A stretch of 54,767 bases of DNA, taken from contig CAYSBQ010000001.1 in the NCBI GenBank assembly GCA_964429315.1, positions 1-54,767 of the forward strand, written 5' to 3'. The notes under the pieces were generated by a model. That model made no database searches. It was not told the DNA's origin and saw only the letters and a list, made by a program, of their open reading frames with translations. The position numbers were made by a program, and so were the translations under genes. The stretch's first letter is position 1, and each line of letters starts with the position of its first letter. This DNA is from an uncultured Desulfobacterales bacterium (GTDB taxonomy: Bacteria > Desulfobacterota > Desulfobacteria > Desulfobacterales > C00003060). Below are positions 12,023-54,767 of the stretch, piece by piece.

Positions 12023-12043
12023 GTTGTTTCCTGGTTTGATTCT

Positions 12044-33517: not shown

Positions 33518-34156
33518 ATGTCTGGATTCCGTTTTGCACAAAATTCCAATCAGGGCGGCCTCGCCCAATACGCCGGTTCGCAGAGTGCTGCGTACGCCGC
33601 CAGCGCTCCGACCATGCGTGGTCGCGGTCAAGGTAGCGAAGGCATGGTCCAGTTTGGCCATGGTGGCGACAAGTTCTACGCTGGCCAAGGTGGCGTAGAA
33701 ACCTACCCCGGCTGCTACGGCCTGCCCACCTACTGTGGTTGGCAGCAAGTCGCAGGTTCGGCTGATATCGGTGCTGGCGCTGCCGGTGTCGTTTCGGTCG
33801 TGCCGACCGTCAGTCCGTTCTTCGAGCCCAAGGCCGTGTACCTTTTCGGTATCGACCCCAACGCTCCCGGAACGAACTTGCGTTTCACGGTTGGCGCCGT
33901 GACCGTGGGTGGTAGCCCGCAGCTGGCGATCAACACCCTTACCCCTGCGGGTGGTGGTGCTGGTTCGCCCGCTGAGCTGTTGAGCGACGTGTTCAACCGT
34001 TCGGACGAGCCGCTCCTGGTGAACTGGTCGGTCTTCTCGACCGTCGGTCTTGCCCGCGAGTTGCAGATCAGCGTGTTCAACTTGAACGCTCAGGCCATGC
34101 GAATCTTCGCATGCATCTGGGGCAACGCTGTGACGTCGCTCGACTGCTACGCGTAA
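33518..34156 (+). CDS. Small beta-rich structural protein (212 aa); candidate major virion or jelly-roll-type protein
   Basis: A Gly/Ala/Gln-rich N-terminal arm is followed by alternating hydrophobic beta-like segments (AVYLFGIDP, LRFTVGAVTVGG, LLVNWSVFS, LQISVFNLN, RIFACIWGNA). Long purine-rich leader, and the gene is followed directly by a strong terminator. Confidence 0.7.
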   Translation: MSGFRFAQNSNQGGLAQYAGSQSAAYAASAPTMRGRGQGSEGMVQFGHGGDKFYAGQGGVETYPGCYGLPTYCGWQQVAGSADIGAGAAGVVSVVPTVSPFFEPKAVYLFGIDPNAPGTNLRFTVGAVTVGGSPQLAINTLTPAGGGAGSPAELLSDVFNRSDEPLLVNWSVFSTVGLARELQISVFNLNAQAMRIFACIWGNAVTSLDCYA

Positions 34157-34256: not shown

Positions 34257-35387
34257 GTGGGCGCAAAGGGGCAGACGGGACAAAGCAGATTCGCTCTGAC
34301 ATCATCCGCGCAAGGCGCGGTGGTTACTCGGCCGACGACTGGGCAGATTCGGAATGCTCAACGGGCTGAGGTTTCTCGTTTTAACGATCCGAGGGTAGCC
34401 CTTCCGAATCCAACGGCGGATGCACCTTTCGATCGGACCAGGCCGCAGCCGTACGAATCGAAGGTCAAGGGCCTTGGTCTGGCGCCGAATGTACCACGTC
34501 ATTTCTGGCAGCTCATAAAAGGTGACGCTGGAGCCGGAAGTTCTATCTTTCGGCGGATCAGCCTTTTTCAGCAGCTCGCTGTTTCGGGCGCTCGAGTTGC
34601 TTCGACTCCTTATAGCAAGGCGATCCAAGTCGCTACGATGAGGTCGACAGATCAACGACCGCGCTATTTCCAGGTCAGCCTGTTTTCGACCGGTCGAGTT
34701 ATCGAGACGGATGTACCGATTGGTCCAGTTCCGGATGATGAGATTCTAAGATTCTCTCCGGGTGTACCCCAAAGCTTTGTTCCTCTCGCGGGATTCGATG
34801 TAGCTCGAGCTGTCCCTCTTGTTTCGACGACGAAGTTCCGGATTATGGTTCATGACGAATCCGGACAGAGATTCTTCGACGTCGATGTTGTTGGAACGAG
34901 GAGTCTGAACCTTTATGCGTGGGGTGTAACTGTTTTCGCCCTCATAAAGGAAGAGGGCTACGAGATCGATCGACAAGGCGCCGATCAAGAGCAGTTCAAT
35001 GGAATGCTCGACCAGGCCATTGCCGGCGCGCGAATCATTCCTATTCGTTCAAACTTCACGCAAAACGTGAATCAGAGAACGGTATCGATTTTTATTCCGG
35101 CGGAGATTGCGATCTCCATTGTCCCGATCCCCCCTGGCGCGAAGACTGTACAGGCGTTTTGCGCTGATGGGTCCGCAGGATTCGCTAGGTTCTCCGTTTT
35201 ATTTGTAGACATTGACCCAATCAACAGCGGCGTCTCCGGCGCTATCGGGACGCTGGGGGTGATCGATCCTGAGCCAGGCACCGGGACATCTGAGATTTAT
35301 AGGATCCCCGACTCGAATGCGATATTCTTGGTTCGACTCGGAGTAGACCCAGCTATCTTCACGTTCGTGTTCGAGGAGACGCCATGA
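34257..35387 (+). CDS. Capsid-candidate paralogue 1 (376 aa, GTG start)
   Basis: Homologous over its full length to the next two genes. Shared blocks: FNDPRV.LPNP...PFDRT.P, GDAGAG.S.(F/Y)RR, R(Y/F)(F/W).(V/I)S, (I/V)MV(H/F)DESGQRF(F/Y)DVDV.G.RS...YAWGV, GAR(I/V).PI, NRT(V/I), (V/I)PIPPGA..VQ and a C-terminal F(V/I)FE. GGAGA lies 7 nt upstream of the GTG. Confidence 0.75.
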   Translation: MGAKGQTGQSRFALTSSAQGAVVTRPTTGQIRNAQRAEVSRFNDPRVALPNPTADAPFDRTRPQPYESKVKGLGLAPNVPRHFWQLIKGDAGAGSSIFRRISLFQQLAVSGARVASTPYSKAIQVATMRSTDQRPRYFQVSLFSTGRVIETDVPIGPVPDDEILRFSPGVPQSFVPLAGFDVARAVPLVSTTKFRIMVHDESGQRFFDVDVVGTRSLNLYAWGVTVFALIKEEGYEIDRQGADQEQFNGMLDQAIAGARIIPIRSNFTQNVNQRTVSIFIPAEIAISIVPIPPGAKTVQAFCADGSAGFARFSVLFVDIDPINSGVSGAIGTLGVIDPEPGTGTSEIYRIPDSNAIFLVRLGVDPAIFTFVFEETP

Positions 35388-36463
35388 CCAGAAAAAGAAT
35401 CGGTACTGGCGATATAAGGGATATGCAGCGTGCGGATGTTCAGCGCTTCAATCGCAACGGCGTCTACCTTCCAAATCCAACAACGTCGCCAACGCTAGAT
35501 CGCCATAAGCCGATACCAAGCGACGAAAAAGCTCGAGCGTTTGGACTTGAGCCGGTTTCTCCGAAGCGTCTGTTCGATCTACCTGCCGGAGACGCTGGCG
35601 CGGGTCAATCTGTCTATCGTCGCATCCATGCTTTTTATGGGCAAGGGATAACCCAGGCCGCGCGGACGAACTACACAAAGGCGCTGGCGATCATCACAAA
35701 CAGGTCTTCGACCCAAACTGCGAGATACTTCCACGTATCGATCTACGGATTCGGAGTACGAAGAACTGGGAACGGCGTCGTACCATTCAATCCTCTGAGT
35801 ATTGCGGAAGCGCAAGATCGTCAATTTGAACAGATCTACCTAGACGACGTCGCTCAGACTCCGATTACGCCAAGATTCGTACCTTCGGTTCTTACCGCTC
35901 AAGCTCGAGTGATGGTCCACGATGAATCTGGCCAAAGGTTCTACGATGTTGACGTTATCGGTAGTAGATCTTTCAGCGTGTACGCCTGGGGCGTATCTGT
36001 ATTCTTACTCGTAAAGCCCGATGGGTACGAGGTAGATGCTCAGAACCCCGAAGGAAGTGAGCCGATACTCTCTGACGTCGGTGTAGAAGACGATGTTGTC
36101 GGCGCCCGTGTGCTTCCGATTTTCACCAACCTTACAGAAAATCAGCAGAACAGGACGATAACAATCACGATAGACCCTGCAGTATCTGTCGCTCGAAGAA
36201 TCATTCCGATTCCGCCAGGCGCGAGACGCGTTCAAATCTTCTCCAATGAGCCCGACCCAGGTGCGGTTCCATGGGAGATGGATTTTTGGACAGGGCGAGC
36301 GGCGCTTGGAACAAGGCCCGATCTTGGAATCATTGACTGGGAGCCCGGCCAAGCGAAGACATCGATGGTGGAAATTCCAAATGCATCCGCCATCGCCATC
36401 CGCCCATTAGATCCAGGAGCCAGGGCAACAGGCTTCTCACTCGTATTTGAGGTCGAACCATGA
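35384..36463 (+). CDS. Capsid-candidate paralogue 2 (359 aa)
   Basis: Shares the same conserved blocks. ATGA overlap with paralogue 1, GAGGAG SD, N-terminus MTRKRIGTG. Confidence 0.8.
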   Translation: MTRKRIGTGDIRDMQRADVQRFNRNGVYLPNPTTSPTLDRHKPIPSDEKARAFGLEPVSPKRLFDLPAGDAGAGQSVYRRIHAFYGQGITQAARTNYTKALAIITNRSSTQTARYFHVSIYGFGVRRTGNGVVPFNPLSIAEAQDRQFEQIYLDDVAQTPITPRFVPSVLTAQARVMVHDESGQRFYDVDVIGSRSFSVYAWGVSVFLLVKPDGYEVDAQNPEGSEPILSDVGVEDDVVGARVLPIFTNLTENQQNRTITITIDPAVSVARRIIPIPPGARRVQIFSNEPDPGAVPWEMDFWTGRAALGTRPDLGIIDWEPGQAKTSMVEIPNASAIAIRPLDPGARATGFSLVFEVEP

Positions 36464-37707
36464 CCAGAAAAAGAAATCTCAAGAACAGGATTCATACGCC
36501 GCCTGATGTTCAGCAGCAGCATGCAGATCACCTGGCCAATATTGCGAACATGCTTTCACAGGAGCAGACCGGCAATCATGGAGTGATGTACCCGAACGGA
36601 AGGCCGAACATCAGTCAGGTGAGGGATCTCGAGCGGGCGATGCAGCAGCCGTTTAACGATCCACGCGTCATGCTGCCCAATCCATCGGCAAGCGCACCTT
36701 TCGATCGCACCGAACCGCTCGACCGTGTTGCAAAGAATGAGGCGTTCGGATTCCAGGTCCAGCCTGATCGGATTATCGATCTACCGCCCGGCGATGCCGG
36801 CGCTGGGCAATCCGTCTATCGTAGAACGCACATCTTCGCGCGTCTCAATGCGTCGACTGCTCCAGATGACCCTGTTGCAGGAAATCCATTCGACAAGGCT
36901 ATCGGAATGGCGACCTACAGGTCGAGCGATTGCCGCCCTCGATTTTGGCATATCTCATTCTTCGGAATCGGTGTTCAGCGAGTCGCTAACAATGTACCGC
37001 TAAGCCCTCTCACAAACAATGAGATCCTCAGTCAGCAACTAGACCCTGTCACCAACAACGTATTGCCTACTGGAAGATTCATTCCTTCAATCTCGCAGAT
37101 GAAGGGGCGAATCATGGTCTTCGATGAGTCGGGGCAGAGGTTCTACGACGTCGACGTTTTAGGTAATCGGAGTCTCGATATCTACGCCTGGGGTGTAACC
37201 GCATTCATTCTTGCGCCTGGAAACAACTATGATGGTCAGCCAGATCAATCCGCCTATGAGGTAAACGCTCAAAATGGAGGAACCCCAATCCCTCAAACAC
37301 AGCTCGAGGGATTGGTTGAAGACTCTTTGATCGGAGTACGCATTGTCCCGATCGTAATTAACAGTACTCAGAATACTGAAAACAGAACGATCACGGTTGT
37401 GACGCCCGGCGGCGCCGATCCAGGGCCAACGAGAGTCCCGATCCCTCCAGGCACCCTGAGGGTTCAGGTTCTATGCCATGACGGAGCGACGGTTGCGGCG
37501 ACATACCGCCTTGAATTCGACGCTGGAGATGACGGCACATTTCTGGGAAGGAGTGATCTTGGTTTGCTCGAGTTCAATACGGGTCAAGCAAGAACTGATC
37601 TAATGCTCGTGCCCAATTGCTCACAGATTATTATAAATCCACCAGTCGCGCCTCCGCTTGTAGGCACTGTTGGATGGTCATTCATCTTTGTCGTGGAGGC
37701 GCAGTAA
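36460..37707 (+). CDS. Capsid-candidate paralogue 3 (415 aa)
   Basis: Shares the same conserved blocks, with a longer N-terminal arm and insertions. ATGA overlap with paralogue 2. N-terminus MTRKRNLKNR. Confidence 0.8.
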   Translation: MTRKRNLKNRIHTPPDVQQQHADHLANIANMLSQEQTGNHGVMYPNGRPNISQVRDLERAMQQPFNDPRVMLPNPSASAPFDRTEPLDRVAKNEAFGFQVQPDRIIDLPPGDAGAGQSVYRRTHIFARLNASTAPDDPVAGNPFDKAIGMATYRSSDCRPRFWHISFFGIGVQRVANNVPLSPLTNNEILSQQLDPVTNNVLPTGRFIPSISQMKGRIMVFDESGQRFYDVDVLGNRSLDIYAWGVTAFILAPGNNYDGQPDQSAYEVNAQNGGTPIPQTQLEGLVEDSLIGVRIVPIVINSTQNTENRTITVVTPGGADPGPTRVPIPPGTLRVQVLCHDGATVAATYRLEFDAGDDGTFLGRSDLGLLEFNTGQARTDLMLVPNCSQIIINPPVAPPLVGTVGWSFIFVVEAQ

Positions 37708-37708
37708 G

Positions 37709-38176
37709 ATGGCAGAATACAAATTTGTCATTCGAACTGAAGACGACAATGTATCTGATGACGAAATGATTCAGCAGGGGCTCGCCGCCATCTGGTCAGC
37801 AATCAAGATAAACATACTTTATTTTAAACGCAATCCAGACGCTGTATGCGCGCTCGCTTGCGGCAAAGTGAAGTACGACTCAAAAAACAAGGACGTTCTA
37901 TCTATGATTGGGGAGATCAGCACGGCGCCGATTCTCATCAAAGATGGAATGGGTCTTTGCATCGACATTGTTGCATTCGATGTAGCGACAAAGCTTTACG
38001 AGGGGCTCGAGGTGTGGCCTCACATTTTTTCGCGTGGAGGAGGTATCTACCATGTTGTGACGCAGGGTTACGATGGAGCCGGTCAGGTGATAGAATACGA
38101 CCCATCCGCAGAACTTGAACAAAGAGGCTTCGCGGTCTCGCATCAGCCTGACAGTTGCCAGGCCTGCCACGTCTAG
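37709..38176 (+). CDS. Transglutaminase-like / papain-fold cysteine protease candidate (155 aa)
   Basis: Trimmed to the ATG 37709, with GGAGG 9 nt upstream. GMGLCIDIVAF (Cys), about 37 aa later GGIYHVVTQ (His), about 17 aa later VIEYDPS (Asp). This reproduces the C-H-D order and spacing of the transglutaminase-core fold. Confidence 0.5.
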   Translation: MAEYKFVIRTEDDNVSDDEMIQQGLAAIWSAIKINILYFKRNPDAVCALACGKVKYDSKNKDVLSMIGEISTAPILIKDGMGLCIDIVAFDVATKLYEGLEVWPHIFSRGGGIYHVVTQGYDGAGQVIEYDPSAELEQRGFAVSHQPDSCQACHV

Positions 38177-38190
38177 AAAGGCAAAAGAAA

Positions 38191-40050
38191 ATGGCATCGA
38201 GAAGAACCCGCTCAAAAAAATCAAAGTCCAATCGAGGTGCTCGTCGCTACGGCGATTGTCGCCCACACGCGCCATGCGCAGAGTCAGAAGGCGGAGCCCG
38301 AAAGTACGGATCTATCGGCCATGTCGTTTCCGGATTTGACCATTATGGCTATCCAATCGTTCGGAACATGAGGCTGCCCAAGCCGTTCTCGATTCAGGAT
38401 GGTCGCAAATATGGCGCTGCCCAAAGCATGATTCAACCGATGCGCCTCGTCGCCGTCGGACCCAATGGGGTTCCGCCAGTGCCTAAGCCGGGGATCGCCA
38501 AGGTCGGAGTGTTCAAGCTCAAGCCTTCACCATCGGTGCCTGGCGCTCCGGATAGCCTCCCGTCTCAATACAAGTTCTGCGTGCAAAAAGGCGAGCACGG
38601 ATATTTTTATCGGTTCCGAAACGCGAAGACCTCTTTGCACGGCGCCGAGGCTGAGGTGCTGGGATGTGAGCCCGACGAGAACGGGATGGCCATCTGCACG
38701 GTCAAGATGCCTGGGAGTGATCGGCCTTATAAGGCTCCGCTTTGCGAGGATGCTGGATCTGACAAAGAGCCCGTCCCCGTCGACTGCTGCGTCAAGCTTC
38801 TTGGTGACGAGTCTGGCCAGATCATCTGCCCGGGATCGTCTTACGACCTGCTTGTCGTGAATGTCGTGACGACCTCACCGGTAGGCGGCGTCTTGGTTGC
38901 ATCCGTTTCTCACCCGGACATCCCAGGCGGCGGTGTCCGTTTGCCGATTTGCGAATCCATCGATGAGACTCCGGAAGATCGCCCTTGTTGTATCGAGGAA
39001 AAGACCGGGCTCATTGTGTGTCCCGAGGGTGTCGACTTCCCGCTGTCCGGTAAAAAGATTCCTCTCGAGTTCCTTGTGTTCGCAACAGAGGCAGACGGAA
39101 GCCGAGTTGCGCGCCTGAAGTGCGGAGACATCATGGCGCTCGACCCGTCTCTGCGCGTATCGGATGCAACGCTCGATTCAATGTGGATGATTTGCGAAGA
39201 GTTGGGTGGATACATCTTCCCAATTTGCGATCGCCGGACGCCTGTGCCTCCGCCAAAAATTCGATTCCCTGACGCGCCTCCTCCACCAAAGGTTCCGGAT
39301 ATCTGTTGCTACGACCCTCAGACCGGAACTCTCGTGTGCGAGGGTACGCAATACCACGGCCTCCCTGTTGAGGTCGTGACTGAATCCACAATCGGCGGTA
39401 AGTTGATCGTTTCCGTTGCGAGCGACAAGCTTCCCGGTGGCGGTGCCCGACTTCCAATTTGCCCGCCACCTGCAGACATTCCTCGATTGCCCCCAGCCGA
39501 TTGCTGCGTCATCGAGTCATCTGCTGGCCTTGTCCTTCTGTGCGACCCGAAAGACCACCCTTGGAACAACAAGGACGTCAGCCAATTTGGGCAATGCATA
39601 GATACTCCAAACGGCCGGATGTGCGTGCTGAAGTGGACGGATGAATACGGAGAGCACTTGCTCGAGGTTCCAGCCTGCCCACCTCCGCCCCCTGCTCGAA
39701 CCCCACCGGGTGGAGAGGTCCCTCCTCCGCCTGCAGTCCGACCCGATCCAGTACCGCGTCTTCCACCACCTTCGCGCCCGCCTGCTGATGCATGCGACAC
39801 GGTTGAGGGTAAGCGGTGTCGAGCGCTTTGGGATGAGATGATCTCCAAGCCTGCGAAGATGACCAAGTGCGATAAGAAGTGGACCGAGCTTCTCAAGAAA
39901 GTTCGTGAGCAACGCACTGGACCTGGGCGTCGAGCAAGCTCGATGGATAACCACAAATCGAAGGCTCGCAAATACGGAATGGGCATCCCACCCGAGAGCC
40001 GAAGGTATGCTCGATTCCCGGGGCTTCGGGGTGGAAGGAATACGATCTAA
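38191..40050 (+). CDS. Cys/Pro-rich modular structural protein (619 aa) with a basic N-terminus
   Basis: Trimmed to the ATG 38191 (MASRRTRSKKSKSNRGARRYG). Four modules open with CC-x(6-8)-G-x-(I/L)-(I/V/L)-C and close with (L/F/V)P(I/A)C, for example CCVKLLGDESGQIIC...GGGVRLPIC and CCYDPQTGTLVC...GGGARLPIC. Also has poly-Pro tracts and four [AG]R[RK]YG motifs. Confidence 0.75.
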   Translation: MASRRTRSKKSKSNRGARRYGDCRPHAPCAESEGGARKYGSIGHVVSGFDHYGYPIVRNMRLPKPFSIQDGRKYGAAQSMIQPMRLVAVGPNGVPPVPKPGIAKVGVFKLKPSPSVPGAPDSLPSQYKFCVQKGEHGYFYRFRNAKTSLHGAEAEVLGCEPDENGMAICTVKMPGSDRPYKAPLCEDAGSDKEPVPVDCCVKLLGDESGQIICPGSSYDLLVVNVVTTSPVGGVLVASVSHPDIPGGGVRLPICESIDETPEDRPCCIEEKTGLIVCPEGVDFPLSGKKIPLEFLVFATEADGSRVARLKCGDIMALDPSLRVSDATLDSMWMICEELGGYIFPICDRRTPVPPPKIRFPDAPPPPKVPDICCYDPQTGTLVCEGTQYHGLPVEVVTESTIGGKLIVSVASDKLPGGGARLPICPPPADIPRLPPADCCVIESSAGLVLLCDPKDHPWNNKDVSQFGQCIDTPNGRMCVLKWTDEYGEHLLEVPACPPPPPARTPPGGEVPPPPAVRPDPVPRLPPPSRPPADACDTVEGKRCRALWDEMISKPAKMTKCDKKWTELLKKVREQRTGPGRRASSMDNHKSKARKYGMGIPPESRRYARFPGLRGGRNTI

Positions 40051-40877
40051 TGACATGGAGAATTAATCGTCGCTATTCGAAGACTGGCGGTCGCGGGTAC
40101 GGAGAGGATTCCGCACCTGCCGCTAGGCCTGAGCCTCCGCGCCCAGTGCCATCCGCCCGTCCACCTGGGAGACCGACTAATCCAGGTCCAACCCAAGGCT
40201 TCATTCCGAACCGTGGGAATACCCAGGGGTTCATTCCGATGCCTGGGCCGACCCTGAAGTTCATTCCCAAGGGTGACAACACTCCGTTCCACCCCCCTGG
40301 CCCAGGTATCGGAATCCGCCCAGGACCACCGCCTGCGCTAGGTCGACCTGGGATTCTCCCTCGGGACCATGGCTCATGGAAGAACGACAGCTGCTTCTCT
40401 CCTGGTAGTCGAGGATGGAAGCCGGACATCATGTCCATCGGTGACGCGCATACGTGCCCAGGCGAGAAGGGTCCGCAAAGCCCTTTTCGTCCACCGAACA
40501 CGAGCGGTGATTCCTATGGCTACAACACAAAGCTGTTCCGTGATGAGGACAGCGTTGGCGAGGCGCTTAATTATATCGGATATAGATCACCCGATGGAAA
40601 TGCGATGCTGCGAGATTTTCAGAGGCACTGGAACGCAGTCATTTCTGCGCTAGCGCTTTCGCCAATGCGTTTCGCAAACATGATGTTCAAGATTCTGCCT
40701 GAGGGCAATCTGCAGGTCGACGGTGATATCGGACCTAATGTCCTCAACGCTCTCGAGGCCGCATCCATCAACCAGAAGTTTTCGAACCTTCGCTGGCCGG
40801 ACATTGTCGAGATCACCACGACTTCCGATAATGGATACGGACGAACGCGACTCTACAACGCTGCTGAGGGAATGTGA
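40050..40877 (+). CDS. Basic-leader protein with a Pro/Gly-rich region and a PG_binding-like C-terminal domain
   Basis: MTWRINRRYSKTGGRGYG, short repeats TQGFIPNRGN/TQGFIPMPGP/TLKFIPKGDN, then PPNTSGDSYGYNTKLF...ALNYIGY...FQRHWN...VDGDIGPNVLNALE. TAATG overlap with the previous gene. Confidence 0.7.
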   Translation: MTWRINRRYSKTGGRGYGEDSAPAARPEPPRPVPSARPPGRPTNPGPTQGFIPNRGNTQGFIPMPGPTLKFIPKGDNTPFHPPGPGIGIRPGPPPALGRPGILPRDHGSWKNDSCFSPGSRGWKPDIMSIGDAHTCPGEKGPQSPFRPPNTSGDSYGYNTKLFRDEDSVGEALNYIGYRSPDGNAMLRDFQRHWNAVISALALSPMRFANMMFKILPEGNLQVDGDIGPNVLNALEAASINQKFSNLRWPDIVEITTTSDNGYGRTRLYNAAEGM

Positions 40878-41476
40878 TGTCGAGCCCACCGAACTTGTCA
40901 AAAGACCCTGATGGGTACAACCGAAAAATGTTCCGCAGCGAGCGAGCGGTGCGACGCGGGTTCATGATGATTGGGTACCCAGTAAACCCAGGGGTACACA
41001 GGGTGCCGAAGGAGACTGTCCTTCAGTTTCAAAAGGACTACAACAAGTGCTCCGATAGATTCGGCCAATGGGGAAAGATTGTAGAGAATAGTTCTCTCGA
41101 TATCCCGAGCCTAAACGCGCTCGAGCACGCCATACGATGGTCGAAGAAGCGTGAGAACAAAGAGGGGATCCCCACAGCTCGGTCCTGGCAATCGCTTTGC
41201 CACGCCGCGCCCGGAGATTCATGCGGCGGAGAGAGGCGAATCATCGCTTCTCGAATTGAGGAGCCTGCGGCATACGAGACGAAATACATCGAGGTAGCCC
41301 CTCAGGGCACCGCAAAACTTCGGGACACCGAGACCGATCTAGCTCTCAGAGCCGAAGTCGTCGGCTTTGAGAGGGACGGCAATGTCGTATTCGCCATTGT
41401 GAAAATCCCACCCCAGGCTGATCTTCCTGGTGGCCGCGAAGCTCCGTTCCGTTGCCCTTGCGTATTGGGACGATAG
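40874..41476 (+). CDS. PG_binding-like domain protein (200 aa), paralogous to the C-terminus of 40050..40877
   Basis: PPNLSKDPDGYNRKMF...GFMMIGY...FQKDYN...IPSLNALEHAIRW aligns with the neighbouring genes. ATGA overlap. Confidence 0.7.
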   Translation: MMSSPPNLSKDPDGYNRKMFRSERAVRRGFMMIGYPVNPGVHRVPKETVLQFQKDYNKCSDRFGQWGKIVENSSLDIPSLNALEHAIRWSKKRENKEGIPTARSWQSLCHAAPGDSCGGERRIIASRIEEPAAYETKYIEVAPQGTAKLRDTETDLALRAEVVGFERDGNVVFAIVKIPPQADLPGGREAPFRCPCVLGR

Positions 41477-41485
41477 GAGATTTAG

Positions 41486-41980
41486 ATGACCAGAAGATAC
41501 GGAAGACACGGCAGAAAGATGAACGGCGGGCGCACCTATGCGGCTCCCCCAGATGGTCGCGCCGCGTTACTTCGTCTTCTCGATCAATTCCATGCGTCCT
41601 ACCTTATCTATCGAGAGGGGCACTGGACCGTAAAGGGAAAAGGTTACTATGGTAATCATCTTCTTTTGGAGAGGGTCTATAGTGAAACCGAGAAGGAGAT
41701 TGACGATCTCGCTGAGATGATCGTTGGATCATTCGGACCGGGCATCATCGGAAGCAGGGACGATAGCTCTTCGAGGTGGGCGGAGGATTTCAGGAATCCA
41801 GTCGACCCAATGAGAGGCGCTCTGAAAGCAGCCCGAGTTGTCCGAGCTAGTATCGATGACTCGTATAGATCCCTCAAGGAGTCCGGAGAGATGACCACTG
41901 GGTGGGATGACTTACTGATGTCGTTGGCCCAGGAGAAAGACAAACATCTGTACCTGCTTCAGCAGGCCACCGCGGAATAG
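41486..41980 (+). CDS. Dps-like (ferritin superfamily) protein with a basic N-terminal leader
   Basis: LLRLLDQFHASYLIYREGHWTVKGKGYYGNHLLLERVYSETEKEIDDLAEMI matches the Dps signature (L..Y.k...HW.V.G..F..LH..fee.Y.e....D.iAErI). It includes both His and the D/E of the ferroxidase site. EKDKHLYLL lies near the C-terminus. The leader is MTRRYGRHGRKMNGGR. Confidence 0.7.
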   Translation: MTRRYGRHGRKMNGGRTYAAPPDGRAALLRLLDQFHASYLIYREGHWTVKGKGYYGNHLLLERVYSETEKEIDDLAEMIVGSFGPGIIGSRDDSSSRWAEDFRNPVDPMRGALKAARVVRASIDDSYRSLKESGEMTTGWDDLLMSLAQEKDKHLYLLQQATAE

Positions 41981-41989
41981 GAAAAGACC

Positions 41990-42535
41990 ATGACCAGAAG
42001 AAACGGAAGACACGGAACTAGATACAATCGCATGGGGGGACCAGTCAGGGGAGGCGCATCCAGAGGTCTGGCAGCCCCAGCCCCCAATGTCCCGCCTAAT
42101 CTAAGTGGCAATCCTGCGGGCTACAATAAAGTTCGCTTCCCAAGCACCAAAAGTGTTATCTCGGAGCTTCAGGGGCTCGGGTACACGGCGATCTACAATC
42201 CCAAGGCTGCCTTCGTGAGATTTCAGCAGGATTATAATATCGTCCATAAGTATAGCCCCAAGCATGCTCCAGGTACCCTGGTACCCGATGGAGTTCCTGG
42301 GATAAACACTCTGAACGGTATGGACTGGGCGACTCGCATGGTCAAGACCATGCCTAAGAGCTGGATTTACTACGTCAAAAAATTCCGCTCGATGGGAACC
42401 GACAAGCCGAGCAGCCCAGTGCCTCTTTTCCCTAAGCCTAAGCCTAGCGGTCCAACGCGTCCGGGAAAGCCTAAGCCTAAGCCTGGTGCGAGTAAACCGA
42501 TAGGTCGTCGCCGCAGCCGTCGCCGTAGCCGGTGA
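41990..42535 (+). CDS. Basic-leader protein with a PG_binding-like domain and an Arg-rich tail
   Basis: MTRRNGRHGTRYNRMGG, then PPNLSGNPAGYNKVRF...LQGLGY...FQQDYN...VPGINTLNGMDWATRM, then a KPKP-rich tail ending GRRRSRRRSR. Confidence 0.7.
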   Translation: MTRRNGRHGTRYNRMGGPVRGGASRGLAAPAPNVPPNLSGNPAGYNKVRFPSTKSVISELQGLGYTAIYNPKAAFVRFQQDYNIVHKYSPKHAPGTLVPDGVPGINTLNGMDWATRMVKTMPKSWIYYVKKFRSMGTDKPSSPVPLFPKPKPSGPTRPGKPKPKPGASKPIGRRRSRRRSR

Positions 42536-42564
42536 CCCATCAGGAACTTTCTACGGGGTAGGAA

Positions 42565-43263
42565 ATGACACATCGATTCGGAAGAGCAACAAGAGTTTTT
42601 AATGCCATGGGTCCTGCTGGCGTAGCCGGCATGGAGCTTGCGCCCTCGGCGCGTGCAGAGGCTGAGTCTCATCCGGCCGTCACCTACCAATCTGGATATG
42701 GATCGATGATGGCGTCGGGGGCATCTCCAAATGCTCCCATGAGAGTGGGCGCAATGGAGTACACGATGCCTCCGAATCGGATGCTCGAACCTCATCGACA
42801 AGGTGAGCAGAGTCGAATGCTGTGGCATCAGACTGGGCGTAGATTCGGGAATCCACCACCTGGGTGGATTGGTGCTGGCGGGGTTGCCCAGATCCCCCAC
42901 CCGAATATGGGTATGAGGCCTGCCCCCGACCGCTCCTTTGGTCCCGGTCTAAGCGCAGGCCAAGGCGGCGTCCAGTCATTTCAAGGCGGAGCTGGACCCA
43001 TGGCGGTTCAAACCTACGGAAGCCTAGGGTACGCGAGTATGGGCGACGGGAGCATGGACATGGCCGTGCGTCAGGGTCGTAGATTCTCAAAGGTTTCGGA
43101 TTACGAAAACACGGTTACTTGCAACTGGTGGTGCTCGAAACACCCGGATTCCCAGTACTGCAAGCCGGGCGGTCTATGTACGGATAGCTATTTCCTTCCC
43201 AGCCCGACTAAGCGTCGAATCAGAAGCAAGAGCCCGGCCAGGAAAAGAAGGAGAAAAAGATGA
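42565..43263 (+). CDS. Basic-leader Gly/Met/Pro-rich protein with an Arg-rich tail (232 aa)
   Basis: MTHRFGRATRVFNAMG at the N-terminus, a C-terminal Cys cluster (CNWWCSKHPDSQYCKPGGLC) and the tail KRRIRSKSPARKRRRKR. Confidence 0.65.
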   Translation: MTHRFGRATRVFNAMGPAGVAGMELAPSARAEAESHPAVTYQSGYGSMMASGASPNAPMRVGAMEYTMPPNRMLEPHRQGEQSRMLWHQTGRRFGNPPPGWIGAGGVAQIPHPNMGMRPAPDRSFGPGLSAGQGGVQSFQGGAGPMAVQTYGSLGYASMGDGSMDMAVRQGRRFSKVSDYENTVTCNWWCSKHPDSQYCKPGGLCTDSYFLPSPTKRRIRSKSPARKRRRKR

Positions 43264-43532
43264 CCATCAAAAAAGGTAGATTAGGGAGAAAGTTCAATCG
43301 CGCAGCCATGGCTGACCCCAGGGGCAGCTGGGCTGCGGGCGTACCAGCAAGCGCTGGATTCTATCCCGAGCAAGGTGTCCGATTCTCCGGTACGATAGAT
43401 CCGCTGTCGTGCCCCGCCGCCCCTGCGTGCAGCTCGACTGACGAGAGTGGCGGATCTACTACGGAGCGTCGATACGCGAGAACATCCCTCAAGCCAAAGC
43501 GCCGCGGATTACGACGCCGCAGCCGTAGGTAA
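43260..43532 (+). CDS. Small basic-leader protein with an Arg-rich tail (90 aa)
   Basis: MTIKKGRLGRKFNRAAM ... RRYARTSLKPKRRGLRRRSRR. ATGA overlap and AAGGAGA SD. Confidence 0.65.
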   Translation: MTIKKGRLGRKFNRAAMADPRGSWAAGVPASAGFYPEQGVRFSGTIDPLSCPAAPACSSTDESGGSTTERRYARTSLKPKRRGLRRRSRR

Positions 43533-43535
43533 TCA

Positions 43536-43922
43536 ATGGCCAAGACAGATCTAAGACCCGCCGCCCTCGCCGCCGGCATCTTCGTCATCGGCGGAGTCGT
43601 GCTTTTTTCGAGAAAGAAAAGAAAGGCATGCCTTGAGCTTCCTGACATCTGGTCAGAAGAAGGTCCAATGCACATGACGCAAGGGTCTCAAGATGAGGCT
43701 ATTGAGTTGACCCGATACAAGATTAGGGAGTACGTTCTTTCTGCGAAGTCGTACACTCGCTCCGATATCGTGATGGCTGTCGCCGATGGGCTAAGAGAAT
43801 GCAAGTGGGAGAATCTCGAGACCGACCAACAAAAACAAGTGTGGGAAGGCATCGAACAGATCGTAAAAAGCGAGATTCAGGCGTATAATCAGAGTCCAGA
43901 TGCCTGGATGGCATCCTTCTGA
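43536..43922 (+). CDS. GG-helix/basic N-terminal module protein (128 aa)
   Basis: MAKTDLRPAALAAGIFVIGGVVLFSRKKRK. Starts 3 nt after the previous stop. Confidence 0.7.
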   Translation: MAKTDLRPAALAAGIFVIGGVVLFSRKKRKACLELPDIWSEEGPMHMTQGSQDEAIELTRYKIREYVLSAKSYTRSDIVMAVADGLRECKWENLETDQQKQVWEGIEQIVKSEIQAYNQSPDAWMASF

Positions 43923-43936
43923 TTCGGGAATAGATA

Positions 43937-44728
43937 ATGGCTATACAGCAGGGAAAAGTTCTAATCCTAGCGGGCGCGGGAGCCCTGCTGTTCATTTCAG
44001 CTGGGAAAAAGAAGAAGCGGAAAAAAACTTCTTCGAGTGCGGCTCCTGAACCTGCAGAGGATATGGATAGCACCGAAGGCCCCGCGTTTGAACCGGACGA
44101 AGTAGCGGGCGAGGCGGACGGCGCTGAGCCTGAGGCTCCACCCAAAATCGAGACAGCCATCAGCAAGTACATGTCCCCCGACGGCAAGGCGCAACTCGGC
44201 GCGTTTTACCAGATACGCCCTGGTGACACGCCGCTCGAGATTTGCCGCGAAGCTTTATTTGGATCGAGAGAGCCGGTTACGAGCCAGGTCATGCGGCAGG
44301 CTGCCAAAGACCTTCTTGTCAGAATCGACTGCGGCCCCTGGAACCAAGCTGTATATGGAGTATCTCTGAGCAAGCTGACCCCTGGTCACGCTGCAATCGA
44401 TGAGTACTGGACGCAGCAAGGCGTCTCTTTGTACCCGGTTTATTCGGACAATTCCGATCGAATGTCAAAGGGACTCTCTGCGAGCGGGGCGAGCGGAGAG
44501 AGCTTTGCTTTGATTTGGATTCCAATGATCAACCTCGATAAGTTCGACATGGAAGGTATTGTGTCGACAGAAGGTATGTATCACCCTGACACTCCGAATG
44601 GACTAGGCGGGAGCATGATCGATCCACCCCTAGAAATTCTGAGCCTCGGATTCGATGATGTGTCCGAAAAGACAGTCGGATGCGACCTGCCAGAGGGCGA
44701 CTTCAGAAGAAATCTGATCGCTAACTGA
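43937..44728 (+). CDS. GG-helix/poly-Lys module protein (263 aa), possible LysM-like segment
   Basis: MAIQQGKVLILAGAGALLFISAGKKKKRKK. FYQIRPGDTPLEICREAL loosely resembles the LysM start (Y.V..GDTL..IA), but this is a weak match. Confidence 0.7.
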   Translation: MAIQQGKVLILAGAGALLFISAGKKKKRKKTSSSAAPEPAEDMDSTEGPAFEPDEVAGEADGAEPEAPPKIETAISKYMSPDGKAQLGAFYQIRPGDTPLEICREALFGSREPVTSQVMRQAAKDLLVRIDCGPWNQAVYGVSLSKLTPGHAAIDEYWTQQGVSLYPVYSDNSDRMSKGLSASGASGESFALIWIPMINLDKFDMEGIVSTEGMYHPDTPNGLGGSMIDPPLEILSLGFDDVSEKTVGCDLPEGDFRRNLIAN

Positions 44729-44847
44729 TGGCTAAAAGATGCCGCCCTTCGCGCTGCAACTCACATCGTACAATACCAGTCCCCGACCCCCAATCTCCCC
44801 TCTCTTCTAACCGTCGCAACGCACAAGAAAACGGCACTTCCTAAGCG

Positions 44848-44876
44848 TTGAATCATGCCTTGCAAAATGGTAAAGT
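44848..44876 (+). promoter_or_regulatory. Candidate sigma70-type promoter in the 169-nt gap inside the late block
   Basis: TTGAAT (44848-44853), a 17-nt spacer, then TAAAGT (44871-44876), 21 nt upstream of the ATG at 44898. Confidence 0.4.
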
Positions 44877-44897
44877 TTAAGGCGGAAGAAGAACCCT

Positions 44898-45383
44898 ATG
44901 TCAAAGAAGAAGTACGATACAAGCGAACCAATTCTCGTCATTGTTAGGCGCGGTCGAAAGGGTCGTGGATTCACGGTCGCCCCAGTGGAGGACGCGTCGA
45001 ATCCGGCAATGTGCGGGACAATTGAAGAGCTTGGCGAAGTGCTTGAGGAAATGCTGAACGATGAGTATCAGTCCCGAGTGGACCTCGCCGCAATGTTGTC
45101 AGCCGGAATGGAAGGCTCAGAATCCCCAAGAGGCCGAGCGCCCGAAGAGGGTGAGCCAGAATACGACGATGGCGATGAGGATGAGGACGAAGACGAGGCT
45201 GAAGGCGGCGAAGAAGACGGCGGACTATTCGAAGGCGTCGCAGGCGCTGCAGATCCAGCAGACCAGCTCCTCATCAATGTATTTTCCTGGGCCGCGAAAA
45301 AAGGCCAATCAATGAGCAGCAAGCCTCGCGCTCCACGAGCCCGAACCAGAAGGCGACGCCCTTCTGGTAAAAAGAGATCATAA
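44898..45383 (+). CDS. Acidic-core protein with an Arg-rich tail (161 aa), no hydrophobic module
   Basis: EGEPEYDDGDEDEDEDEAEGGEEDGG in the centre and PRAPRARTRRRRPSGKKRS at the C-terminus. Confidence 0.65.
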   Translation: MSKKKYDTSEPILVIVRRGRKGRGFTVAPVEDASNPAMCGTIEELGEVLEEMLNDEYQSRVDLAAMLSAGMEGSESPRGRAPEEGEPEYDDGDEDEDEDEAEGGEEDGGLFEGVAGAADPADQLLINVFSWAAKKGQSMSSKPRAPRARTRRRRPSGKKRS

Positions 45384-46103
45384 ATGGACCCCGTCACCCT
45401 TGCAGTCCTCGCCCTAGGCAGCGCCTTTCTCCTCAAAGGGAAGAAAGGTCGCGGCAGTAGGTCCGCGCCCAGCGGCAGTAGGTCCGCGCCCAGCGGCGGA
45501 TGGGGTGTAAAGGGTGACGAAGACCGCCTTCACTGGCTCAATGAGATTCGCTCAATGTCTCACTGGTACACCCAAAAATTTGGGTCAATGCCATACCTAG
45601 CCGACTACCTCACGGTCGTTGGCTATATCGAAGCGAACTTCAACCCGGCCTCGCGGAATCCGGAATACAAAACCAACCCCGCGAACGCGGCTAGAGGGCT
45701 CGGCGGAATGCGTCCTGATACGGCGTTCAAAGAAAAATACGGGACCGAGTTCATGGCCCCATACCCGGACGCCCTCCTGAATCCTCGATGGGCTTTCGTC
45801 ATGGCGGTCCATCACATCTGGTACGCTTGTGCTCGCGTCGATGAGCTGCAGACTGGAGTGATTGATTGGGCTGCAGTAAGACGTTGGTGGGGGAGGCCCA
45901 CCACTGTCCACGATTTCAATTTCGACAATCCGTATTCATCCGGAAACCTCGAGCGATTCGTGGATAAATTGCACGAGTGCAATAAGAATTACGGCACCAA
46001 TATCGATCCAGATTTCGTATGGGAGAAGGTTTCCGGATGGCGAAATTATCCTGGTATAGAAGTGATGATTGAGTCATTCGGTCTCAAAGGCGTTTACGCA
46101 TAG
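45384..46103 (+). CDS. Membrane-anchored lytic transglycosylase (SLT-like) candidate
   Basis: MDPVTLAVLALGSAFLLKGKKGRG, then GYIEANFNP (catalytic Glu context, where E-S-x-F-N-P is expected) and ANAARGLGGMRP (where GA.GLMQ is expected), followed by PYPDALLNP. Confidence 0.55.
   Translation: MDPVTLAVLALGSAFLLKGKKGRGSRSAPSGSRSAPSGGWGVKGDEDRLHWLNEIRSMSHWYTQKFGSMPYLADYLTVVGYIEANFNPASRNPEYKTNPANAARGLGGMRPDTAFKEKYGTEFMAPYPDALLNPRWAFVMAVHHIWYACARVDELQTGVIDWAAVRRWWGRPTTVHDFNFDNPYSSGNLERFVDKLHECNKNYGTNIDPDFVWEKVSGWRNYPGIEVMIESFGLKGVYA
45453..45494 (+). repeat. Perfect in-frame 21-nt tandem duplication
   Basis: GGCAGTAGGTCCGCGCCCAGC at 45453-45473 is repeated at 45474-45494. Encodes GSRSAPS GSRSAPS just after the membrane module. 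Confidence 0.9.
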
Positions 46104-46109
46104 GTAAAT

Positions 46110-46805
46110 ATGGCAGCTCCAGCAATCCCCCTATTGGCCGCGGCAGGAGCCGCTCTTCTTCTTTCCGGTGGCAAGAAAAAGAAGAAGAGCGGCCCGAGGA
46201 CTGGCCAGAAATGTGATGACTCCCTGAGTCCGCCTAGTGGATTCACCTGCGACGATGGGTTGCTGAAAGAGGAATCGATCGAAGAAGGGGATCTAGATAG
46301 CGATGCAGATCTCTCCAAGGAGGATTCCGGGGACTTCGAAACGTACCAAGAGGATGTCGGGCTTTCTGATGGTGAGGAGCACGGCGATCTAGAAGAGCCG
46401 GAAGACCCCGCGCCTGACCCGGTGAAGACTTGCGAGGAGTTCATGAGCGCAGTCCATGTGGACTCGACGGATGACGGCGAGTTACCCATCAACGCTGTAG
46501 CTGTCGAGGAGTCGGTGCTGCCGGCAATGAGGGCGAACGCGGCGAGCATTGCTGAGTCAATTGGGACTCCGCTCGACCACGAGTCGGTAAGTCCAGTATT
46601 GGTTGTCACGGGTCTCAAGTCCCTCATTCCAGTGTGCGAATGGAAGTACGACGTGGACGACGGATTCACCTATAACAACGGAACCGCAATAATTTCGGAT
46701 GAGGCGAAGGACGTCATATACGGACTTATCGAGTTGTCCGTAAGCGTGATCGACGAGATCAACAACCCCGTGACTAACACCGCAACACTGCAGCCGGAAG
46801 GATAG
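46110..46805 (+). CDS. GG-helix/poly-Lys module protein with an acidic ectodomain (231 aa)
   Basis: MAAPAIPLLAAAGAALLLSGGKKKKKSG, followed by an Asp/Glu-rich region. Confidence 0.75.
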   Translation: MAAPAIPLLAAAGAALLLSGGKKKKKSGPRTGQKCDDSLSPPSGFTCDDGLLKEESIEEGDLDSDADLSKEDSGDFETYQEDVGLSDGEEHGDLEEPEDPAPDPVKTCEEFMSAVHVDSTDDGELPINAVAVEESVLPAMRANAASIAESIGTPLDHESVSPVLVVTGLKSLIPVCEWKYDVDDGFTYNNGTAIISDEAKDVIYGLIELSVSVIDEINNPVTNTATLQPEG

Positions 46806-46808
46806 AAT

Positions 46809-46994
46809 ATGGCGAAAAAGAAAAAAGAGGACGACGATGCGTTCAACAAAATTTTGTGGGTTGCCGGGGCCGCTGGCGTGACAGCGTTTGCCATGTTCTA
46901 CGTGAACAAGCATCTCAACGAAAAGGAAGAGCTTAATCGATTGCGGAGCAATGGGCACCAGCCTCAGCTTAGCGGTGGGGACGGCGAAGAATGA
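46809..46994 (+). CDS. Small membrane protein, basic cluster before the helix (61 aa)
   Basis: MAKKKKEDDDAFNKILWVAGAAGVTAFAMFYV. The order of the poly-Lys and the hydrophobic helix is inverted relative to its neighbours. Confidence 0.6.
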   Translation: MAKKKKEDDDAFNKILWVAGAAGVTAFAMFYVNKHLNEKEELNRLRSNGHQPQLSGGDGEE

Positions 46995-47503
46995 AAGATC
47001 TGGCAGAAATGGAGGTATGGGGGCTTGAGCAGTTCTCCCAGCAATGGGAGCGCTCGTTAGATCTACGCGACATCTTGTCGAAGCTTCCTGGCCAACTGGT
47101 TTTGAAATCAGGACTATCCGCTCGGCGGAATAAGCTTGTTGAGGGGTGGGACCAGCTCGAGTCCCCCGGCCTTGACGGCATCGTGTCTAATGAGTCCGCG
47201 ATCGCTCTGAAGAGATGGATCCATGAGGCGGAGATCTTCATCGCTCACATCATTCAAATCGGAAAGCAAGACAAACAGCAAGCGTTCGGCCGCGCGTTTG
47301 CAGGGACAGATGATGTCATTCAGTTCGAAACAGTCGAATCTATTGGCGAAGTTAATTTCGTTTCAGACGAATGGTCCTTTCCGTGGGCGGTAAAACGACA
47401 GTCGAATCGAGCGAAGAGCTTCGATAAAGAAAAGCTCTTTAAATACGGAACGCTCGGCGCCCTCGGCCTTATCGCTGTCGTCACATACATGGACGAGGAA
47501 TAA
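46991..47503 (+). CDS. Tail-anchored protein (170 aa)
   Basis: ATGA overlap with the previous gene. The only hydrophobic helix is C-terminal (YGTLGALGLIAVVTYM-DEE). Confidence 0.65.
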   Translation: MKDLAEMEVWGLEQFSQQWERSLDLRDILSKLPGQLVLKSGLSARRNKLVEGWDQLESPGLDGIVSNESAIALKRWIHEAEIFIAHIIQIGKQDKQQAFGRAFAGTDDVIQFETVESIGEVNFVSDEWSFPWAVKRQSNRAKSFDKEKLFKYGTLGALGLIAVVTYMDEE

Positions 47504-47505
47504 CG

Positions 47506-47949: not shown

Positions 47950-47967
47950 AATACACAAGGCAGAACC

Positions 47968-48546: not shown

Positions 48547-48562
48547 CCGGCCAGCCCACTTG

Positions 48563-49714: not shown

Positions 49715-49729
49715 AATCAGGATATCGTT

Positions 49730-50404: not shown

Positions 50405-50407
50405 AGA

Positions 50408-52996: not shown

Positions 52997-53005
52997 GAGT
53001 CCAAA

Positions 53006-53473: not shown

Positions 53474-53479
53474 TCCGTC

Positions 53480-54013: not shown

Positions 54014-54016
54014 GTC

Positions 54017-54682: not shown

Positions 54683-54712
54683 CCATCAGAGCCTAATCAA
54701 ACGGAACAACAG

Positions 54713-54767
54713 ATGGCATCTCCACTCCCACTTTTGATCGTTGGCGGCGCACTTCTTCTCATCAGCG
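54713..54767 (+). CDS. Start of a further GG-helix module protein (partial, runs off the window)
   Basis: The ATG at 54713 begins MASPLPLLIVGGALLLIS, which reaches the window edge. Confidence 0.6.
   Translation, partial: MASPLPLLIVGGALLLIS

Follow-up and report, generated by a model that had tools for sequence, protein, structure and literature searches.

Leader-bearing genes of the late block

The window analysed here is the whole 54,767-nucleotide (nt) contig CAYSBQ010000001.1 (GenBank assembly GCA_964429315.1, deposited as an uncultured Desulfobacterales bacterium), and the element under study is an Arg-rich N-terminal leader carried by eight genes among 11 consecutive late genes of the contig (35384–43532). 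A first-pass annotation, made from the sequence alone, had drawn attention to this leader, and every one of the eight gene starts that it gave reads as reported. The carriers, all on the + strand, are gB (35384..36463; 359 amino acids, aa), starting MTRKRIGTG (MTRKRIGTGD when one residue more is taken); gC (36460..37707; 415 aa), starting MTRKRNLKNR; g619 (38191..40050; 619 aa), starting MASRRTRSKK, in longer form MASRRTRSKKSKSNRGARRYGDC; g275 (40050..40877; 275 aa), with MTWRINRRYSKTGGRGYG; gDps (41486..41980), with MTRRYGRHGRKMNGGR; g181 (41990..42535; 181 aa), with MTRRNGRHGTRYNRMGG; g232 (42565..43263; 232 aa), with MTHRFGRATRVFNAMG; and g90 (43260..43532; 90 aa), with MTIKKGRLGRKFNRAAM. 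In the case of g619, the mechanically delimited open reading frame (ORF) begins at TTG 38155, while the ATG at 38191 is favoured by the orthologues. Two genes inside the block, 37709 (g155) and 40877 (g199), are leaderless, as are 32879 and 33518 (g212) just upstream. In gene 34257 (gA) the leader is weak in the window genome.

The eight leader genes contain a mean of 3.9 Arg in residues 2–17, compared with 0.8 in the 57 other genes (Mann-Whitney p = 1.8e-6). The start MTx[RK], a pattern defined post hoc, is present in 7/8 leader genes and in 0/57 others (Fisher p = 1e-8), and the probability that eight genes fall by chance inside 11 consecutive ones of 65 is 1.8e-6. The motif [RK][RK][YF][GASN], also chosen post hoc and occurring as RRYG, RKYG, RRYS and RKFN, is found 11 times in the block, while shuffles give an expectation of 0.9. 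So, concerning the enrichment that the first-pass annotation had put forward as a check of its signature, the leader stands far above chance with respect to the other genes of the window, and the related motif stands above shuffles. The DNA-level identities that it had noticed between the starts of 41486 and 41990, and between those of 35384 and 36460, were both borne out. The ATGA stop-start overlap could explain the Thr in position 2 at 35384, 36460 and 43260 only; the genes 41486, 41990 and 42565 come after intergenic spacers, where such an overlap is no explanation for this residue.

Basic C-terminal tails had also been reported, and all of them were found: GRRRSRRRSR in g181, KRRIRSKSPARKRRRKR in g232, KRRGLRRRSRR in g90 and RTRRRRPSGKKRS in g161 (44898..45383, + strand), an acidic, leaderless protein encoded inside the block of membrane-protein genes that follows. 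The boundary between both classes of genes at 43532/43536 is real. The proposed division of the late region into basic-leader proteins and proteins with a membrane helix and poly-K is broadly right, with the qualification that 44898 and 48563 lack a membrane helix although they lie inside the membrane-protein block. The tails keep their composition in orthologues, while their sequence drifts; in the case of g161, the tail is poly-K in one orthologue.

What the first-pass annotation left unrecognised is that three of the carriers are, according to fold predictions, the capsid proteins themselves. These are gA (34257..35387, + strand; GTG start; 376 aa; degenerate leader MGAKGQTGQSRFA), gB and gC, tandem paralogues A, B and C that are mutually 38–41% identical. 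A model of gB was obtained with AlphaFold2 (AF2), with a predicted local distance difference test (pLDDT) of 78 and a predicted template-modelling score (pTM) of 0.50. Compared by Foldseek with the PDB, it matched the P3 capsid proteins of PR772/PRD1 (E 4e-5, probability 0.94–0.99) and the capsid protein of Sulfolobus turreted icosahedral virus (STIV; probability 0.95) and, more weakly, Vp54 of Paramecium bursaria chlorella virus 1 (PBCV-1; probability 0.25–0.51) and vaccinia D13 (0.28). In a viral library the matches were the tectivirus capsid proteins of GC1 and Wip1 (0.91–0.95) and also asfarvirus-like capsid proteins. Because the template-modelling (TM) scores are just ~0.2 and bicupins match too, the predicted fold of gA, gB and gC is termed only double-jelly-roll-like, which falls short of proof of a double jelly roll.

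In the gB model, a helix is predicted at residues 8–19 (block mean pLDDT 77) and is followed by an arm of low confidence at residues 21–80 (mean pLDDT of 10-residue blocks, 45–67). In gC, 43 inserted residues lie between the leader and the conserved arm, and MTRKR is still located at the extreme N-terminus. The basic extreme N-terminus of the capsid family persists in relatives down to E ~1e-16, and only the most distant members, which are shorter, are without it. The gA-gB-gC triplet is kept in most relatives, while the distant relative L040 has two members only (328–2540). To our knowledge, double-jelly-roll phages have one capsid protein; it is possible that the three paralogues form heterotrimeric capsomers.

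Conservation and portability of the leader

The leader is conserved and portable, and it is organized in a cassette structure. Every carrier keeps its leader in orthologues from ~40 metagenomic loci, the identity elsewhere in the protein being 45–80%. The orthologue leaders read MTRKRLGTGD for gB, MTRKRNLRR for gC, M[AP]xRRxRS..RR[YF][SAG]DC for g619, MT[WYT]RTARRY[AS]KTGGRGYG for g275, MTRRNGRLGRKYNRRG for g181, MTYRFGRATR for g232 and MT[YH]KTGRLGRRYSRAG for g90, and the relatives of gA show MTRGKGHSxxNRFAQ. Across lineages, all four Thr codons are used at the conserved Thr positions and both codon families, AGA and CGN, at the conserved Arg positions, and the codons for Gly and Leu vary too. 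This synonymous turnover of the Thr and Arg codons indicates selection at the peptide level.

Two forms of the leader can be distinguished. The capsid paralogues carry a short form (MTRKR... or MTRGKG..NRFA), while the long form of the array that follows them has the consensus MT-[RHYW]-[RK]-x-G-R-x-G-[RK]-[KR]-[FY]-[NG]-R-x-G. Estimated over 38 leader ORFs, this consensus reaches positions 9–16, which were not imposed by the search pattern. The first-pass annotation had suggested scanning the contig and related viruses for the motif, and the matches are confined to the virion block: a stricter long-form pattern gave 27 ORFs in the window and 41 loci, all of them on the + strand within that block, and 0/3,400 ORF starts on the minus strand. 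The 38 leader ORFs of a looser pattern come from 14 sources and, once leader and tail are removed, their bodies form 4 families plus 11 singletons, so that at least 15 bodies with no relation to one another carry the leader.

The stretch that separates 40877 from the first membrane-protein gene contains 2–5 leader cassettes, the set of which varies among relatives. The general layout of the cassettes is a leader followed by a flexible linker, a body unrelated to the others and a basic tail, and the linkers behind the leader in g275, g181, g232 and g90 consist of P/G/A/S to 55–60%. The leaders of the array are part of a direct DNA repeat of 39–54 nt, the unit of which comprises a stop codon, AGGA, a spacer and the leader. 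The window has three copies, all on the + strand, each with the ribosome-binding site (RBS) and leader of the gene that it precedes. Copy 1 (41473..41511), with TAG stop, GGA, spacer and ATGACCAGAAGATACGGAAGACACGG, belongs to gDps. Copy 2 (41977..42015), 82% identical to copy 1, belongs to g181, and the weaker copy 3 (43247..43285), 64% identical to copy 1, to g90. The relative L041 (~82% identical) has four copies spaced ~500 nt.

Among the proteins of the block, gDps is the only one that gives a match in Pfam and PHROGs (the Pfam scans covered 64 predicted proteins of the window, and the PHROGs scans 54 of these). Its residues 26–159 match the Ferritin family (PF00210, 1.4e-7) and the protein matches phrog_3636 (1.4e-11); the leader corresponds to residues 1–25, and there is no basic tail. 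As judged by Pfam, PHROGs and sequence, gDps combines a ferritin-like four-helix fold with a flexible basic terminal extension. The Dps-like cassette is located between g199 (40877) and g181 (41990) in the window, while in L041 it lies one slot further on, between the gene in the g181 slot and g232, and it carries the leader in both slots. Directly upstream of the Dps-like gene of L041, at 9950–10000, there is a 16-codon orphan of the 42565-type leader (VTHRFGRSTRLFRARG-stop), and the g232-type body of this relative has a new leader resembling that of Dps. Apart from L040, the other long syntenic loci have no Dps gene. Recombination within the repeat of leader and RBS would shift or replace bodies in frame, and a newcomer gene, such as the Dps-like one, would gain the address label automatically through the repeat. 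L041 also contains, at 9512–9949, an uncalled ORF of 145 aa with leader and tail.

In L001 (16173–18137), and in the same slot of L004, L009 and L011, the array is replaced by a single ORF of 560–655 aa. It contains helical repeats each ending R[RK]YGG, a Gly/Arg/Pro-rich low-complexity centre and an internal leader-like MAKRRKRFAQ, which suggests fused cassettes or internal starts.

Concerning the Dps-like homologues, the close ones carry the leader, while the distant ones have no leader and show KKLK[TS][KR]LLR at the C-terminus. This ending is not exclusive to them. In L039, which is an 86-kb contig carrying an integrase, K[KR]LK[TSA][KR]LLR-stop closes six unrelated proteins in a row (10001–13568), and the same holds for three consecutive unrelated proteins in L038 (1634–3065). 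The codons of this C-terminal tag vary synonymously in both loci, and both encode single-pass membrane proteins built like those of the window. In L040, the distant relative with capsid orthologues, the Dps-like protein has an N-terminal leader plus a related C-terminal tail. We know of no description of the K[KR]LK[TSA][KR]LLR tag. The terminal peptide of one cargo family thus differs from lineage to lineage, while inside a genome it is common to several unrelated neighbours, and this is the behaviour of an address label.

Interpretation of the leader

The signature singled out by the first-pass annotation is real and conserved, and it does not extend beyond the virion module, while the interpretation given there is supported in part. 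It had taken the leaders and tails as marks of core or nucleoprotein components that bind or travel with the genome, and had left as a second option a packaging or propeptide signal. The packaging signal fits better. The leader is conserved by position, while the tails are conserved by composition only; it keeps the extreme N-terminus and is joined to 15 or more unrelated bodies; it has been duplicated along with the RBS as a cassette boundary; and the Dps-like cargo has elsewhere a Leu-containing C-terminal tag common to 3–6 consecutive proteins. These are the reasons why packaging is favoured.

It seems plausible, although tentative, to interpret the leader as a portable N-terminal virion-incorporation peptide of ~16 residues, which would direct soluble proteins to the inner capsid face of an undescribed virus. 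We infer a location in the virion, a docking partner and a role in cargo loading. The class of proteins with leader is that of the soluble proteins of the virion module, shell proteins included. The accessory proteins would present an N-terminal arm resembling the capsid proteins' own, and the arm would dock on the same acidic partner beneath the shell during assembly, be it a pocket or surface of the capsomer, or the scaffold or membrane surface of the assembly. Any body behind the leader would thereby be co-assembled, while the Arg/Ser/Lys tails, conserved only in composition, would bind polyanions (DNA or acidic lipid) non-specifically.

The genome-binding role, in which leaders and tails would act as non-specific DNA binders and charge neutralizers, the carriers would be core or nucleoprotein components and their likeness would come from duplication, is plausible, but in our view less likely than incorporation. 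It agrees with the Arg-rich character of the leaders, with Gly and Tyr/Phe, with the SR- and SPxK-like tails of g181, g232 and g90, which resemble protamines or the C-terminal domain of hepatitis B virus (HBV) core protein, with the preference for Arg in leaders and tails and for Lys beside membrane helices, and with the drift of the tails in sequence at constant composition. The Dps-like carrier can be added to these points, as the Dps family binds DNA by disordered N- and C-terminal tails (PMC13319912). However, Gly6, Gly9, the aromatic residue 12 and Gly16 are conserved across unrelated bodies, which exceeds what charge neutralization needs, and elsewhere the same cargo has a Leu-rich amphipathic tag common to six proteins. 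Moreover, the ~20 membrane-protein genes suggest an internal membrane and, if it lies under the shell as would be expected from PRD1-type architecture, the DNA would be out of reach of the leaders. The membrane itself could instead be the partner, the basic-aromatic leader and the KKLKxKLLR tag binding the acidic outer leaflet of an internal membrane and tethering capsomers and sub-shell proteins to it, in the manner of the basic/aromatic clusters of MARCKS type or the membrane-targeting helices of MinD and FtsA. This peripheral anchoring appears improbable. It is consistent with the genes for single-pass membrane proteins with juxtamembrane poly-K (membrane-anchored cell-wall hydrolase domains included) that adjoin the capsid genes, with the pairing of Arg with Tyr/Phe/Trp in the leaders and with the i/i+4 Leu face of the L038/L039 tag. 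Also, it is generally known that the N-termini of double-jelly-roll capsid proteins face the membrane; in PRD1, PM2 and STIV they are located at the capsomer base, towards the membrane. PBCV-1 Vp54 is reported to favour anionic bilayers (PMC12566899). But polybasic lipid binders are usually rich in Lys and depend little on a specific sequence, a hydrophobic segment is missing from the leaders (36/38 show a maximum 12-residue Kyte-Doolittle mean <1.6), purely basic SR tails anchor poorly, and the virion membrane is itself deduced from the gene content.

Two other explanations are far less probable. The leader might be an expression-level or historical feature, i.e., a duplicated module of RBS and start codon or a remnant of tandem duplication, the peptide being functionless. 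The repeat indeed takes in the upstream AGGA and spacer. Besides, within the leaders, taken as codons 1–20 of each of the eight genes (35384–43320), AGA accounts for 56% of the Arg codons, as compared with 15–17% in the rest of the same genes, the basic C-tails and the other late genes, and the A fraction over nt 4–39 is 0.44 in leaders versus 0.29. Nevertheless, the peptide is kept where AGA became CGC, CGT or CGG and where the Thr, Gly and Leu codons changed, A-richness would give Lys and Asn rather than conserved Gly and aromatics, and the leader of the capsid family is kept to E ~1e-16. A functionless peptide is thus very improbable, and a pure translation signal was rejected on account of the synonymous codon turnover, although the AGA and A-rich bias is real and not fully explained. 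Still harder to credit is a cleaved propeptide or export signal, of twin-arginine (Tat), adenain or T4 type. The twin Arg near the N-terminus, the sequence KMNGG|R of the window gDps, which fits the adenain type-1 consensus, and a mildly hydrophobic stretch ending ARA in g232 speak for it. The Tat signal was rejected, as a 12-residue Kyte-Doolittle mean ≥1.6 within the first 50 residues was reached by 2/38 leader ORFs, while the membrane-helix controls of the window gave 2.2–2.8. T4-type cleavage was rejected also, with [LI]xE within the first 25 residues of 1/38 leader ORFs, and so was adenain-type cleavage at (M/I/L)XGG-X or (M/I/L)XGX-G, found in 3/38, being present in gDps and P0107 and absent from P0108–P0111. 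No maturation protease (prohead protease or Peptidase_C5) appeared in the Pfam and PHROGs scans, which gave in this respect only the cell-wall enzymes M23 and amidase and a chagasin-type inhibitor. The propeptide option of the first-pass annotation thus finds neither a maturation protease in these scans nor a conserved cleavage motif.

Several points weigh against a virion-incorporation peptide. The location in the virion is deduced from gene neighbourhood and from fold predictions with low TM-scores (~0.2). The short capsid leader (MTRKR) and the long cassette leader may be different functional elements. Binding to nucleic acids is classic for peptides rich in Arg/Gly/Tyr and for SR-rich tails, and plain DNA binding would account for much of what is seen, with no role in sorting. 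The AGA and A-rich bias means that some of the conservation at the DNA level may come from translation initiation or from recent duplication. L038 and L039 are tied to the virus only by Dps homology and similar membrane proteins, and no capsid genes were seen in them. Finally, the 54.8-kb contig yielded neither an identifiable packaging ATPase nor a scaffold or protease.

Peptides at protein termini that direct their carriers into capsids are known already, and so are basic arms facing inwards. The capsid-targeting sequence (CTS) of phage T4 is the sole conserved part of highly diverse internal proteins, and it suffices to load foreign proteins (PMC3012670). The likeness to the T4 proteins IPI–III and Alt lies in one N-terminal peptide in front of variable bodies; here the bodies are at least 15 and unrelated, and their location inside the virion is presumed. 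T4 differs in having a capsid of HK97 fold, a scaffolding core and a CTS that the prohead protease cuts off at (L/I)xE, whereas the window has a predicted double-jelly-roll-like shell, a strongly basic leader, no protease or cleavage motif found, and capsid proteins that carry a version of the leader. In adenovirus, the N-terminal peptides of pVI and pVII share one pocket inside the hexon (10.1101/857581). Its capsid is of the double-jelly-roll type, and Arg-rich core proteins (VII and mu) accompany the genome; unlike the case proposed here, the peptides are removed by adenain, there is no internal membrane, and no sequence similarity exists. The encapsulins offer a terminal peptide plus a flexible linker that loads unrelated cargo, classically ferritin-like, and in the window a Dps-like protein is tagged; however, their shell is of HK97 type and their peptides are usually C-terminal and hydrophobic or Gly-rich, while the shell-like proteins of the window match jelly-roll capsids and not HK97. 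Capsid-loading address peptides at protein termini are known for T4, for encapsulins and, in different form, for adenovirus; we know of none described for bacterial double-jelly-roll viruses.

Disordered, Arg-rich termini that point inwards occur in the N-arms of nodaviruses, bromoviruses, circoviruses and nanoviruses, in the C-terminal domain of HBV core protein and in protamines, with SR-rich tails likewise. An Arg-rich, disordered extreme N-terminus on a jelly-roll-like capsid protein is present in the window too, with MTRKR in gB and gC and with long low-confidence arms in gB and in the single-jelly-roll-like neighbour g212. The arms of the small viruses differ in that they are driven by composition, belong to a single capsid protein and serve viruses with single-stranded RNA or DNA, while here a sequence-specific motif is found on many proteins of a double-stranded DNA virus of ≥55 kb and moves as a cassette boundary. 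The Dps tails, for their part, share with gDps the ferritin-like fold with a flexible basic terminal extension, but the extension of gDps is the peptide of its unrelated neighbours, nearly identical in DNA to the leader of the next gene. Concerning PRD1-type viruses (Tectiviridae), the window resembles them in the predicted double-jelly-roll-like capsid and single-jelly-roll-like protein, the many small membrane proteins and the cell-wall hydrolases of the late block. It differs in having three capsid paralogues and not one. Moreover, the 64 scanned proteins of the contig, which may be incomplete, gave no packaging ATPase of FtsK/HerA type, the only ATPases being a classical AAA protein (PF00004), an SNF2 helicase and a D5-like primase-helicase. 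The genome of cultured tectiviruses is far smaller than ≥55 kb.

What appear to be new are the leader sequence, its presence on shell and cargo carriers in a double-jelly-roll-like bacterial virus, the repeat as cassette boundary, and the C-terminal tag of L038/L039. A more far-reaching proposal, for which we claim less confidence than for the incorporation peptide as such, is that of a cargo-loading system in a double-jelly-roll virus, in which a sequence-specific terminal address peptide, N-terminal in this virus, would load a hypervariable array of proteins and the coding repeat would be the site of in-frame cargo swaps. The KKLKxKLLR tag would stand in its place at the C-terminus in L038 and L039. 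A principle like that of T4-CTS and encapsulins may in this way have arisen independently within Varidnaviria, in large phages of a new lineage that has three capsid paralogues. The candidate cargos are injected or anti-defence effectors, a Dps-like DNA protector and cell-wall-binding proteins. If true, the leader would be a simple sequence rule to list, from metagenomes, the internal or injected proteins of an uncultured virus lineage, and a ready tag for packaging foreign proteins, and the repeat would be an example of a coding repeat that works as an in-frame cassette-exchange site. The virus is in itself of evolutionary interest for the PRD1–adenovirus lineage, with ≥55 kb, three capsid paralogues and ~20 paralogous membrane proteins.

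Accompanying genes and genome context

The neighbour g212 (33518..34156, + strand) is predicted by AF2 and Foldseek to be single-jelly-roll-like, and it is a candidate vertex or penton protein. The core of its model (residues 70–210) has pLDDT >90, and its PDB matches are single-jelly-roll capsid proteins, the probability reaching 0.99 at weak E values (3e-3 to 6e-2). It has a disordered N-arm of ~70 aa starting MSGFRFAQ, which is non-basic but has an R-[FY]-small core, and the N-terminal motif MxG[FY]R[FY][AGS]Q is kept in ~70 homologues. The arm is rich in Gly/Gln/Ala and includes G[FY]RFAQ and MRGRG. It is the most conserved protein of the module, with 80–93% identity where the capsid proteins show 55–75%. 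A diverged second paralogue (P0296) is encoded on the same 221-kb contig as L001, and in some distant homologues the N-arm is swapped for a segment that matches the first 59 positions of Pfam Glyoxalase_8.

Among the accessory proteins, g155 (37709..38176, + strand) is a conserved module protein without leader and with an acidic N-terminus, MAEYKF. In the large Cys/Pro-rich g619 the motif [RK][RK]Y[GA] occurs five times, at residues 18, 37, 72, 593 and 604 and thus mainly near both ends of the protein, the C-terminus of which, RKYGMGIPPESRRYARFPGLRGGRNTI, is conserved. It is made of repeated Cys-rich units (CC..G..C.G..Y...V.....GG...SV.HP..PGGG.RLP.C) with Pro-rich linkers between them, and it is a candidate spike or cement protein. 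In g275 the leader is followed by a Pro-rich linker and by a domain common to g199 and g181; within the linker, three tandem 30-nt repeats (40191–40280) encode TQGFIPNRGN, TQGFIPMPGP and TLKFIPKGDN. The paralogue g199 (40877..41476, + strand) has the same domain and is the leaderless exception in this group, while in g181 a P/G/A/S-rich linker, this domain and a Pro/Lys-rich stretch separate leader and tail. The sole match of the small block proteins in a lenient Pfam search (E up to 10) was a sub-threshold one of g275 to PG_binding_3 (E 0.14), so that binding of peptidoglycan by the g275/g199/g181 domain is a lead only. Both g232 and g90 are low-complexity proteins, g90 being a minimal leader-linker-tail protein.

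The products of ~20 genes located downstream of the block and in a second region (43536–54767 and 3635–5026) begin with a hydrophobic helix that has poly-K directly behind it (for instance MAKSAAPLLLLGGAALLLVSSKKKKK), and their C-terminal domains are mostly acidic; the charge of this class is complementary to that of the basic-leader class. Pooled scans of the remaining 44 proteins, most of them of the membrane-protein class, gave families and not the member that matched. They included the cell-wall families M23, amidase, endolysin and peptidoglycan-binding (PG_binding_1). Other genes of the window correspond to an SNF2 helicase, a primase-polymerase/D5 helicase, an AAA ATPase (PF00004) and a RecT-like protein. 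The early region (1–31307) contributes, again known by family and not by member, a Tad6-type Thoeris inhibitor (5.8e-34), a chagasin-family cysteine-protease inhibitor (3e-13), a DprA-like protein, a phosphatase, a macro domain and several helix-turn-helix proteins. The replication, Tad6 and cell-wall enzyme families of the window indicate a virus of a peptidoglycan-bearing bacterium, and the virion probably contains a membrane, as deduced from the genes described.

For the capsid-like protein, 106 relatives were found in metagenomic protein sets, and relatives occur also in 35 metagenome loci, some of them on contigs of 117–221 kb. Two of these proteins are labelled as coming from metagenome-assembled genomes of Planctomycetota, and the virus is probably a phage of this phylum. 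The family is rare: a profile search of 1.84 billion representative proteins gave 84 members, and no relatives of the capsid proteins were found in IMG/VR or in the GTDB representative genomes. The replication genes of the window had no match by DNA similarity in a phage collection, and the literature gave no directly usable account of a double-jelly-roll virus of Planctomycetes or of basic capsid N-arms touching an internal membrane.

Lys-rich proteins are encoded outside the late block, on the minus strand: one of 187 aa with 20.9% Lys (11459–12022), one of 441 aa with a net charge of +36 (1561–2886), and an ORF that runs off the contig start (1–700), Lys-rich and with PKKNPAKKKVAKK repeats. 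They may be DNA binders of histone H1 type, with Lys where the late leaders have Arg.

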